From an uncultured Candidatus Saccharibacteria bacterium (lineage in GTDB: Bacteria > Patescibacteriota > Minisyncoccia > Phycocordibacterales > UBA9973), in NCBI GenBank assembly GCA_964357795.1, contig CAYHMN010000001.1, forward strand, positions 1 through 39,005: a stretch of DNA of 39,005 bases. The letters are read 5' to 3'. Position numbers and translations under genes: made by a program. Numbering within the stretch: position 1 is the stretch's first letter; each line of letters begins with the position of its first letter. This document shows, in pieces, positions 5,048 through 17,637 of this stretch. Under the pieces are notes generated by a model. The model did no database searches. It saw nothing but the letters and a program-made list of their open reading frames with translations, and was not told the DNA's origin.

Positions 5048-6409
<1,362 letters not shown>

Positions 6410-6413
6410 AATT

Positions 6414-6452
6414 AAAAAAAGTACCAATCTTGCAAAAAGCAAAACTGGTACT
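6414..6452 (-). terminator. Intrinsic terminator oriented for minus-strand transcription, just downstream of the atpD stop
   Basis: Stem 6420-6433 with 6439-6452 (12 of 14 pairs), 5-nt loop. The plus-strand A-run at 6414-6420 becomes the trailing T-run on the minus strand. The plus strand has no T-run after the stem. Confidence 0.6.
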
Positions 6453-6473
6453 GAAAATCTTATAAAATAGGAT

Positions 6474-6581
6474 TTAACTTTTGGAAAAAGCAACTTTAAA
6501 TATTTGAAACAAATAAATAAAAATAGTTGTAGCCGTTAATCCTATATATAAGTAACCAATAGCAATTCCAATCATATACAT
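6474..6581 (-). CDS. Candidate small hydrophobic peptide antisense in the atpD-atpC spacer (35 aa; alternative starts at 6602 or 6674)
   Basis: Open frame of 66 codons in very AT-rich spacer. It lies downstream of a consensus minus-strand promoter (6603-6631) and is followed by a canonical minus-strand terminator (6414-6452). The peptide MYMIGIAIGYLYIGLTATTIFIYLFQIFKVAFSKS is TM-like. The T-rich strand biases toward hydrophobic ORFs, so coding status is uncertain. Confidence 0.3.
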   Translation of the reverse strand: MYMIGIAIGYLYIGLTATTIFIYLFQIFKVAFSKS

Positions 6582-6602
6582 AAACAACAAATTTAGAACC
6601 AT

Positions 6603-6631
6603 ACTATAAATTAATTTAAAAAAGATGTCAA
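6603..6631 (-). promoter_or_regulatory. Consensus sigma70-type promoter reading antisense out of the atpC start region
   Basis: Minus strand reads TTGACA (complement of 6626-6631, overlapping the atpC ATG at 6625-6627), a 17-nt spacer, then TATAGT (complement of 6603-6608). Confidence 0.5.
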
Positions 6632-7071
6632 CAAAGCAATTACTACTTAAAATAGTCACTCCAGAGAAGCTCATCTTGGAAGAGATGGTGGATCAAGTTA
6701 CACTTCCGAGTACGGAAGGGGAGCTTACTATACTTCCGGAACATATTCCTATGATTGCAGGACTTGCATCTGGCGATGTTGTAGCATTTGCAAATGGCGA
6801 GCAAGTACCTATGGCAGTATCTGGTGGGTTTATAGAAGTAAAACAGGTAGATGGTAAAACTGAAGTCGCAATCCTTGCAGATTTTGCTGAGCACGTAGCG
6901 GATATTACTGATGAAGCTATCAAGCAAGCAGAAGAAAAAGCTCGCGAACTCAAAAAGATGGCTGACAATAAAGAGGTCGTAGACTTTGAATACTTTGCTG
7001 CTGAACTCGAACGTTCACTCACACGGGTCAAAATCGCCGACAAGTGGCGAACTAAGAAATACCGAAAGTAG
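6625..7071 (+). CDS. atpC: F0F1 ATP synthase subunit epsilon
   Basis: 148 aa. N-terminal beta-sandwich pattern LKIVTPEK...LPSTEGELTILPEHIP...GGFIEV and a C-terminal helical region. Last gene of the operon. Confidence 0.9.
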   Translation: MSTKQLLLKIVTPEKLILEEMVDQVTLPSTEGELTILPEHIPMIAGLASGDVVAFANGEQVPMAVSGGFIEVKQVDGKTEVAILADFAEHVADITDEAIKQAEEKARELKKMADNKEVVDFEYFAAELERSLTRVKIADKWRTKKYRK

Positions 7072-11469: not shown

Positions 11470-11483
11470 TGCTATACTAGATT

Positions 11484-13151
11484 ATGACTCAGGCACAGGC
11501 ATTTGCCATTATGAAAACGGGAGTGAACATCTATCTGACTGGTAGTGCGGGAAGTGGTAAGACATATTTACTCAATCAATATATATCTTACTTACAGAGC
11601 CACGATATCCCCGTGGCTGTTACTGCGTCTACTGGTATCGCAGCAACTCATATGAACGGTATGACTATCCACGGCTGGGCTGGTATTGGTATCAAGGATA
11701 CGATGGATGAGCATGATATTGAGCTTCTCGAAGGCAAGCAGTACCTATGGAAGCGCTTTGATAAGGCGCGAGTGCTTATTATAGACGAAGTTTCTATGCT
11801 CCACGCACACCGGCTCGATATGGTAGAGCGAGTATGCCGAAGATTTAAAAGAAATGATAAACCATTCGGAGGACTCCAAGTTATTCTCTCTGGAGATTTT
11901 TTCCAATTACCTCCGATTAATCGCGAGAGTGGTGCTGATTTGAAAGACATGGTCCTCCATAGTGAGGCATGGCGGATTATGAACCCAGCTATATGCTATC
12001 TTACAGAACAACACCGCCAAGAAGATGAGACGCTGACAACAATACTCAATGCCATCCGAGATAATTCTGTAGACACGCTTCACTATGAACAATTAGAGAG
12101 TCGACTCAACGCAGAACTGCCTGACGGTGTCCGACCAACAAAACTTTATACTCACAATGCCAATGTAGATGGTGAGAATAGTACAGAGCTTGCGACTATA
12201 GCAAGCGATGAGAAACTGTATCGGATGACTTCCACTGGTCCAGATGTGCTTGTAGAAATATTGAAGAAGAGTTGTCTTGCGCATGAAGAGCTACGACTGA
12301 AAGTCGGCGCGGAAGTAATGTGTATTAAGAATAATTTTGACGCAGGTTACGTGAATGGTACTCGCGGGAAAGTCATCGCATTCCTAGATTCTGACGACAC
12401 TCCAATTATCGAGCTCTACAATGGCAAGACTATATATGCCACTCCAGAGACTTGGGCCATAGAAGAGAACGGCAAAGAGAAGGCTAGTATAAGCCAGCTA
12501 CCTATAAGGCTAGCTTGGGCTATTACCATCCACAAGAGCCAAGGTATATCGCTAGATAATGCGGAGATAGACCTCTCAAGAACATTTGCCTATGGTATGG
12601 GCTATGTAGCCCTTTCACGCGTACGTACGCTTGCTGGTATCTGGTTGGTAGGCTTCCACCCCGATGCTCTTCGTGTCGATCCAAAGGTCCTAGAATTTGA
12701 CCAAGATCTCCGGAACGAGAGTACTCAGAATGAACTTATGTTTGGTAAATTGAAAAAGGGAGAGCAAGAGAAGCTTGAATATTCATTTATTATAAACATG
12801 GGAGGTAGTATTGAAACAGGTAATAAGAAAGAAACACAAGTGAAAGTCTCTACAGTTATGATTACAAAAGAGCTTCTCGACCAAGGGAAAAATATTGCAA
12901 AAATTGCCAAGGAGCGTGGTTTAACGAAAGGAACTATTACTCACCACATCGAGCAGATAGTGGAACAGTACCCAGAAACGGTTATAGAACATATCAAACC
13001 GAAACAGCAACATATAGACATAGTAAAGAAAGCAAATAAAACACTAGAAGGAGAGGAAGTAGGGAAGTTGAGCCCTATTAAATTAATCCTTGAGAAAGAT
13101 GGACATAATTTATCATTTGAAGATATAAGATTAGCGAAATTATTTATATGA
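11484..13151 (+). CDS. PIF1/RecD-like superfamily-1 DNA helicase with C-terminal HTH-like domain
   Basis: 555 aa. Walker A GSAGSGKTY, motif II IIDEVSM, GDFFQLPP, WAITIHKSQG, and a C-terminal IAKIAKERGLTKGTITHHIEQ HTH-like segment. Confidence 0.85.
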   Translation: MTQAQAFAIMKTGVNIYLTGSAGSGKTYLLNQYISYLQSHDIPVAVTASTGIAATHMNGMTIHGWAGIGIKDTMDEHDIELLEGKQYLWKRFDKARVLIIDEVSMLHAHRLDMVERVCRRFKRNDKPFGGLQVILSGDFFQLPPINRESGADLKDMVLHSEAWRIMNPAICYLTEQHRQEDETLTTILNAIRDNSVDTLHYEQLESRLNAELPDGVRPTKLYTHNANVDGENSTELATIASDEKLYRMTSTGPDVLVEILKKSCLAHEELRLKVGAEVMCIKNNFDAGYVNGTRGKVIAFLDSDDTPIIELYNGKTIYATPETWAIEENGKEKASISQLPIRLAWAITIHKSQGISLDNAEIDLSRTFAYGMGYVALSRVRTLAGIWLVGFHPDALRVDPKVLEFDQDLRNESTQNELMFGKLKKGEQEKLEYSFIINMGGSIETGNKKETQVKVSTVMITKELLDQGKNIAKIAKERGLTKGTITHHIEQIVEQYPETVIEHIKPKQQHIDIVKKANKTLEGEEVGKLSPIKLILEKDGHNLSFEDIRLAKLFI

Positions 13152-17508: not shown

Positions 17509-17637
17509 TCATCCTTTATACTTTCTGTAAAAATGCACAAATACTGCACCTAGTGCAAGGAAAACAAGAGTTCCAATTAGTAATGCAAGTAATTTTTGGT
17601 CTTTAGTCCAAACTAAAAAGATTAACATTATATTCAT
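17509..17637 (-). CDS. Small single-TM ORF (42 aa)
   Basis: MNIMLIFLVWTKDQKLLALLIGTLVFLALGAVFVHFYRKYKG. Consensus promoter upstream (17677-17705) and a shared bidirectional terminator (17441-17472). Confidence 0.35.
   Translation of the reverse strand: MNIMLIFLVWTKDQKLLALLIGTLVFLALGAVFVHFYRKYKG

Follow-up and report, generated by a model that had tools for sequence, protein, structure and literature searches.

Genes transcribed against the operon that encloses them have been described in bacteria as noncontiguous operons, in which the operon transcript and the antisense mRNA overlap and mutually repress each other (PMC11034616). The type case is menE-menC-MW1733-ytkD-MW1731 of S. aureus, and the atlas includes operons of energy metabolism and toxin-antitoxin genes among its cases and makes no mention of ATP synthase (PMC11034616). 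Here we describe a comparable arrangement in the spacer between atpD and atpC of an uncultured Patescibacteria lineage. The window, by which we mean the whole 39,005-nucleotide (nt) stretch analysed (contig CAYHMN010000001.1), opens with a complete F-type ATP synthase operon in the order atpB-E-F-H-A-G-D-C, as judged by Pfam. It is probable that the atpD-atpC spacer carries a nested antisense micro-gene which is transcribed separately, against the atp operon, in the manner of a noncontiguous operon.

At the level of sequence the locus resembles such operons, in that a gene on the opposite strand, with its own promoter and terminator, lies between two genes of an operon. The locus nevertheless differs from the described noncontiguous operons in several respects. 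Co-transcription and mutual repression are here predicted, the nested gene is a micro-gene for a peptide of 35 amino acids (aa), its -35 element is provided by the start codon of the operon gene that follows, the cassette is an accessory one whose contents can be exchanged, with one frame holding differing peptides in seven genomes, and the host belongs to an uncultured Patescibacteria lineage. A second likeness is to excludons, in which antisense overlap renders expression mutually exclusive through transcriptional interference and RNase III (reviewed in PMC7154746, PMC12288877). Excludons are usually long overlaps between the untranslated regions (UTRs) of neighbouring divergent or convergent genes, whereas the micro-gene described here is wholly nested in the spacer of a single operon.

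Architecture of the predicted antisense unit

The atp genes were identified from Pfam matches together with the list of open reading frames (ORFs). The flanking genes and the elements of the antisense unit are as follows.

5060..6409, plus strand: atpD, F1 beta subunit, 449 aa, with its TAG stop at 6407-6409 (Pfam ATP-synt_ab, 2.4e-73; ORF list)
6625..7071, plus strand: atpC, F1 epsilon subunit, 148 aa (Pfam ATP-synt_DE_N, 4.7e-21)
6631-6626, minus strand: -35 hexamer TTGACA, lying opposite atpC codons 1-3 (ATGTCAA), of which it is the reverse complement
6608-6603, minus strand: -10 hexamer TATAGT, 17 nt from the -35 hexamer
6587..6597, minus strand: 5'UTR or initial-transcribed motif TCTAAATTTGT, conserved in the window and in the relatives L032, L054 and L063
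6474..6581, minus strand: micro-gene for a 35-aa single-pass membrane peptide, MYMIGIAIGYLYIGLTATTIFIYLFQIFKVAFSKS plus stop (ATG at 6581, stop at 6476-6474)
6452-6420, minus strand: terminator hairpin of 14 pairs (5 of them G-C) with a 5-nt loop, the top terminator-like site in 12 kb
6419-6414, minus strand: T-run of the terminator, with 4 nt between its end and the atpD stop

The spacer measures 215 nt (6410-6624), has a G+C content of 0.22-0.25 against ∼0.45 in the flanking genes, and occurs as a single copy, no second copy being found in the genome. It is the longest atp junction in the window, which agrees with an earlier description of it as unusually long, but it is no isolated outlier, being followed by atpE-atpF with 154 nt and atpB-atpE with 139 nt. 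These two spacers (1555-1708 and 1203-1341, respectively) are themselves long for an atp operon.

On the minus strand of the spacer, TTGACA-17-TATAGT matches the promoter consensus at 11 of 12 positions and ties for the top score within the first 12 kb. Matches to the canonical promoter consensus are genuine signals in this organism. Its 0.71 Mb hold 69 matches of at least 11/12, with 52 of them in the 15% of the DNA that lies outside long ORFs, and the 46 intergenic matches at this threshold compare with an expectation of 4.45, an enrichment of ∼10-fold. At the opposite end of the unit, the plus-strand sequence that follows the hairpin reads GAAAATCTT and has no T-run, so that the hairpin does not qualify as a terminator for the atp mRNA. 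A consensus scan of the spacer found neither a plus-strand terminator nor a plus-strand promoter-like site of 9/12 or better. The minus strand thus combines a sigma-70-type -35/-10 pair at 17 nt with a G+C-containing hairpin and T-run, the elements expected of a bacterial transcription unit. The first-pass annotation, made from the sequence of the window, had described a consensus promoter on this strand, an overlap of its -35 with the atpC start codon and a hairpin that terminates antisense rather than atp transcription. The first two descriptions stand, and the third is strongly supported by the recurrence of the architecture in six other genomes; the T-run does lie beside the atpD stop, but at a distance of 4 nt instead of the 5 nt given.

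The coding part of the unit is shorter than first described. The minus-strand frame is indeed uninterrupted over 66 codons (6674-6474) and hydrophobic, but its opening 24 codons precede the promoter or are overlapped by it, which leaves a usable ORF of 35 codons. Versions of 66 and 42 aa were rejected because they would begin at ATGs that either precede the promoter or adjoin the -10, the latter being the case for the ATG at 6602. In four cassettes (the window, L032, L054 and L063) a TCYAAATYTGT motif lies 5 nt after the -10, and in these four the start codon lies 20-21 nt past the -10 (21 nt in the window, L054 and L063). Since the motif and the start spacing are common to the four, the start is placed at ATG 6581 and the product at 35 rather than 66 aa. 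The motif is not a general signal, as it was not found upstream of other genes in this genome. The product, already recorded as a called protein on this contig, is predicted to have one transmembrane (TM) segment and the tail KVAFSKS; its best 19-residue Kyte-Doolittle window scores ∼2.0, as computed on the 42-aa form of the peptide.

From the position of the -10, transcription is predicted to start at ∼6596 (range ∼6594-6597), giving a 5'UTR of ∼15 nt that is predicted to be unstructured and lacks a Shine-Dalgarno (SD) sequence. SD-like 4-mers are depleted genome-wide, since they precede 8% of long ORFs but 15% of random control positions, and the missing SD on the micro-gene is therefore normal here. 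Across the genome, the composition upstream of start codons has a -10-like signal, made up of G at -14, T at -12 and -7 and A at -11, and in 66% of cases T stands at -1. In many genes a -10 box occupies positions -12 to -7, which corresponds to leaderless geometry (an example is the site at 11470-11486 of the window), and this signal implies many leaderless mRNAs in this genome. Leaderless translation of the micro-gene itself was rejected, its -10 lying 21 nt from the ATG against the 6 nt typical here. The predicted RNA of ∼180 nt has a folding energy of -39.1 kcal/mol, and its minimum free energy structure has an open 5' end and the terminator hairpin at the 3' end; it folds better than shuffled sequences (z = -3.5), mostly owing to the terminator.

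Recurrence, coding constraint and chance

The atpD-atpC junction was surveyed at 94 loci, comprising the 80 nearest relatives of the window by atpC together with same-genus genomes (Nomurabacteria-type). Junction length is continuous from -4 to 1530 nt, and a small TM ORF on the minus strand occurs in seven of the loci (the window, L032, L019, L025, L040, L054 and L063). In all seven a TTGACA -35 is found at the same spot, as the reverse complement of an ATGTCAA start of atpC, and exactly 17 nt separate it from a TA...T hexamer (TATAGT, TATAAT, TATTTT, TATTAT, TATAAT, TATTAT and TATAAT, in the order just given), while a hairpin of 10-16 bp with a T-run lies 2-10 nt from the atpD stop. Each of the seven cassettes has an intact TM ORF, initiated by ATG or TTG, that occupies most of the transcript. 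ATGTCAA forms the start of atpC in 31 of the 94 loci, including all seven with the cassette. No -10 or terminator was found in loci that lack the ORF, either among those with the ATGTCAA start or among ∼45 other spacers of at least 60 nt. Promoter, ORF and terminator therefore travel together, their association holding in seven loci against none of the ∼45 other spacers. This strongly supports the earlier proposal of a self-contained antisense transcription unit, as the three-part architecture recurs in six other genomes, in one of them with a homologous and constrained peptide.

The seven peptides are 30-58 aa long; each has one or two TM segments and ends, at its C-terminus, in a short tail that is polar or basic, and they fall into at least four mutually unalignable groups (window/L032, L054/L063, L025/L040 and L019). 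The closest pair allows coding constraint to be assessed. L032 (JANOFO010000007.1) has an atpC 82% identical to that of the window and a homologous spacer with the promoter TTGACA-17-TATAAT, the ORF (TTG)SIIIISLSIMLVFGTISIYLYQICKVAFS and a terminator whose position is unchanged but whose stem differs (CCCGCA...TGCGGG). The two sequences share 17 of 30 residues in the ORF frame, compared with 7-13 in the other five frames. When substitutions are permuted, 17 or more identities arise with P = 5e-5, or 3e-4 if each substitution is confined to its own half of the ORF. The raw ratio of non-synonymous to synonymous differences (pN/pS) is 0.52, and three synonymous changes fall within the conserved KVAFS stretch. 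The comparison of synonymous with non-synonymous sites, proposed as a check on the ORF, indicates constraint on the peptide at the protein level, as judged from this one sequence pair.

The ORF taken by itself is weak evidence, because an ATG-initiated ORF of at least 33 aa appears in 8% of dinucleotide shuffles of the T-rich minus strand, or in 3.4% once hydrophobicity is required as well. The combination is far rarer. In composition-matched resamplings with TTGACA held fixed, where a -10 was counted if it matched at least 5/6 at 16-18 nt, a -10 was obtained in 5.6%, a terminator of at least 10 bp at the atpD end in 0.7%, and the two jointly in 2.75e-4. Multiplied by the 3-8% for the ORF, this puts the trio at ∼1e-5 by composition alone. 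Across the whole genome, a promoter is followed by a terminator within 400 nt at only four sites, and one of the other three (C22:7417-7630) is also a gene for a small TM peptide.

These numbers bear on whether the unit could be a product of chance or a decaying relic, in which AT-rich filler beside a ready-made TTGACA mimics promoter, ORF and terminator. A third of the relatives do obtain TTGACA free from the atpC start, -10-like hexamers are not rare in AT-rich resamplings, and the ORF by itself is not improbable. The joint probability, the perfect association of -10, terminator and ORF at seven loci, the coding-frame signal in the pair and the exchange of the terminator stem with its position kept all speak against such an origin, which we regard as barely credible.

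It has also been considered that the unit may be a non-coding cis-antisense RNA, with the ∼180-nt transcript pairing with the atpD-atpC mRNA or interfering with it to tune epsilon against beta, and the ORF a by-product of the T-rich strand. This would be in line with the shuffles above, with the folding of the RNA beyond its shuffles (mostly owing to the terminator, as noted) and with ORF content that is wholly different between module families in which promoter and terminator positions are conserved. It is not in line with the fixed spacing of 20-21 nt between -10 and start codon that four modules share, nor with the Rfam search, in which the transcript had no match. A purely non-coding role is disfavoured because of the frame-specific conservation between the window and L032 and the intact TM ORFs in all seven cassettes, and we consider it quite improbable.

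The cassette is patchily distributed. L029, whose atpC is 90% identical to that of the window, has a junction of 9 nt, and those of L030 and L033 are ∼9 nt or less; because these nearest relatives have such short junctions, the cassette is best described as accessory. On a tree of atpD and atpC it requires seven state changes, at least five of them forced by well-supported branches, and every carrier has near relatives that lack it. In alignments with cassette-free relatives the whole unit is cleanly present or absent, with no target-site duplication. A repeat or mobile element was rejected as an explanation, given the absence of such a duplication and the single copy of the spacer. The comparison of the spacer with related genomes, suggested as a check by the first-pass annotation, hence gave a divided answer: the architecture is the same in six other genomes, but the junctions of the nearest relatives are short, an outcome it had listed on the side of doubt.

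This distribution also bears on the suggestion, made earlier, that the peptide is a micro-subunit or regulator of ATP synthase, binding F0 or acting on the enzyme, which would explain the location in the atp operon. The position between atpD and atpC, the membrane nature of the product and small TM ORFs on the operon strand at the same junction in three relatives (L055, L060 and L073) are compatible with such a role. Against it, the conserved co-occurrence with atp genes that would be expected of a synthase subunit or assembly factor is not found, since only seven of the 94 junctions have the cassette and the nearest relatives do without it. The frame moreover holds peptides of at least four unrelated families, and the antisense orientation predicts expression inverse to that of the enzyme. 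Position within the atp operon is in any case of little weight, because unrelated extra genes occupy atp junctions of other relatives, including mobile-type genes at one atpD-atpC junction. The patchiness and the unrelated peptides of the other genomes make this role very improbable.

Predicted regulation and the type I toxin alternative

For the nested antisense micro-gene that we favour, the following sequence of events can be proposed. A sigma-70-type promoter with its -35 inside the atpC start would drive antisense transcription, and the predicted transcript of ∼180 nt, from ∼6596 to ∼6414, would be stopped by the intrinsic terminator just before atpD. The 35-residue membrane peptide would then be translated after an SD-less leader of ∼15 nt. 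Promoter and terminator may serve as an accessory frame into which at least four different small membrane peptides have been slotted. Most likely atpC would still be made by read-through from atpD, because the spacer has no plus-strand terminator or strong promoter; the atp mRNA and the micro-gene mRNA would therefore be fully complementary. Convergent transcription, through polymerase collision, together with cleavage of the duplex by RNase III may couple the two inversely, such that strong atp transcription would silence the peptide and firing of the antisense promoter would lower epsilon relative to beta. The gene for RNase III, a prerequisite for duplex cleavage, is present (C31:6966-7358, 129.7 bits).

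Should the predicted transcription of the unit be borne out, nested antisense micro-genes would be maintained even in a Patescibacteria genome of 0.7 Mb, within its most conserved energy operon. The ATGTCAA start context would then have been repeatedly co-opted as an antisense -35, within a fixed frame that gains and loses membrane peptide genes, and the locus would offer a concrete, testable example in which expression of ATP synthase is inversely coupled to that of a membrane peptide, in organisms whose regulation is little known.

Several observations weigh against this reading. It presumes that atpD and atpC are transcribed together through the spacer, and the AT-rich DNA immediately upstream of atpC could hold a weak promoter of its own. 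T-rich strands readily yield hydrophobic ORFs. The closest relatives lack the cassette, which is accordingly dispensable. The peptide family has two members, from the window and L032, and the N-terminal extent of the latter is uncertain, as its ORF may start at the TTG or at a later ATG. Searches did not enlarge this family: a word-indexed search of 5.8e9 clustered proteins returned the peptide itself, a profile search of 1.84e9 representatives returned the peptide and two repetitive, irrelevant proteins, and a degenerate DNA pattern for the C-terminus, run over 596 Gb of genomes, found L032 alone besides the window.

The same C-terminal pattern in the JGI metagenomes matched a contig identical to the window, from the 0.1-um fraction of Hainich groundwater well H41, and two sequences by chance, while a scan for the promoter and UTR pattern recovered L032, L054 and L063 along with four chance matches outside any atp context. 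No match above cut-off was obtained for any of the seven peptides in Pfam, NCBIfam or PHROGs. In Rfam at the gathering threshold no family was found in the window except a tRNA, and 6300-6750 gave only noise up to E 10. The peptide would represent a new orphan family of small proteins, mostly missed by standard annotation.

The remaining alternative is a module like a type I toxin, with a membrane-damaging peptide for which the complementary atpD-atpC read-through mRNA would be the antitoxin, so that production of the peptide would require a collapse of atp transcription, as might occur in starvation or when a phage takes over. The comparison is with Hok, Fst/Ldr, TisB, TxpA, BsrG and AapA1 (compare PMC8309996). 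At 35 aa, the product falls among the hydrophobic membrane peptides of fewer than 60 aa that are characteristic of such toxins, and it shares with them a single TM helix and a polar or basic tail, features that the other six junction peptides have in common with it apart from two TM segments in some. The strong, constitutive-looking promoter of its own and the intrinsic terminator are likewise toxin-like, as are the predicted complementary RNA from the opposite strand and a patchy distribution with the rapid turnover and varied sequences that selfish modules typically show. The ART-PolyVal/Bro-N genes at the same junction of one relative, which are cargo of a conflict or mobile type, and the presence of RNase III also fit.

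On the other hand, the window peptide belongs to none of the described type I toxin families (Pfam, NCBIfam, PHROGs and profile search), and HMMER searches revealed no similarity to a curated toxin family or to any other family. There is no dedicated antitoxin RNA promoter, plus-strand sites of 9/12 or better being absent from the spacer, and only the atp read-through mRNA could serve in its place. The genome has one copy of the unit. The 5'UTR predicted here is short and unstructured, unlike the leaders of most type I toxin mRNAs, which are long and structured. Taking both sides into account, we regard the toxin module as unlikely. A more specific version is slightly less likely still in our estimate, namely a 'housekeeping-guarded' toxin family of exchangeable Nomurabacteria cassettes that use the atpC start as their -35 and whose peptide mRNA is neutralised by the atp transcript itself. 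If that version were correct, it would constitute a type-I-like system without an antitoxin gene, wired to energy status or to transcription shut-off by phage.

Other cargo at atp junctions and further small units

The lineage's atp junctions tolerate accessory cargo, because extra genes are found at both atpD-atpC and atpG-atpD. The atpG-atpD spacer varies in relatives from 17 to 786 nt (median 39.5), and the idea that atpD-atpC is a unique hotspot was rejected on account of this variability. Five genomes (L032, L040, L054, L036 and L079) carry an extra same-strand gene between atpG and atpD, encoding a charged, soluble-looking protein of 105-241 aa, and three of the five also carry the antisense cassette. 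At atpD-atpC, L037 (CAYHYF010000007.1) has a 1.5-kb insert on the operon strand that encodes two proteins, one of 196 aa with an ART-PolyVal ADP-ribosyltransferase domain (1e-8) and a Bro-N protein of 281 aa (2e-11); by these domain matches the insert is mobile-element- or conflict-type cargo. The same-strand small TM ORFs at this junction have lengths of 57 aa (L055), 50 aa (L060) and 93 aa (L073) and would be co-transcribed with the atp genes. One recurrent solution, as the surveyed sequences indicate, is an antisense frame that makes use of the atpC start. The focus on atp operons may introduce an ascertainment bias.

Many spacers of 100-230 nt that lack the antisense cassette are filled by a recurrent, G+C-richer element with a hairpin such as GATTGCTTTTCAAGAGAAGCTATT, seen in L010/L031, L039, L056, L067, L068, L079 and others. 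Its incidental translation LSDEQFAGKALPDRLLFERSY recurs across genomes, and the element is a candidate for a conserved repeat or a structured RNA.

Three further small units were noted. The first, at G000 C2:27322-27504 on the minus strand (L120), runs from TTGACA-16-TATACT to a terminator over ∼140 nt without an ORF, matches no Rfam family at E up to 0.1, and is a candidate small RNA. A second stand-alone micro-gene lies at G000 C22:7417-7630 on the plus strand (L121), where TTGACA-16-TATGAT precedes a 29-aa TM peptide, MSLMPILGFALIALFWFPIDRSRGRGYYG, and a 15-bp terminator; this unit has no Rfam match. Finally, positions 17509-17637 of the window, on the minus strand, hold a micro-gene for a 42-aa single-TM peptide, MNIMLIFLVWTKDQKLLALLIGTLVFLALGAVFVHFYRKYKG, that is unrelated to the peptide of the atp spacer.

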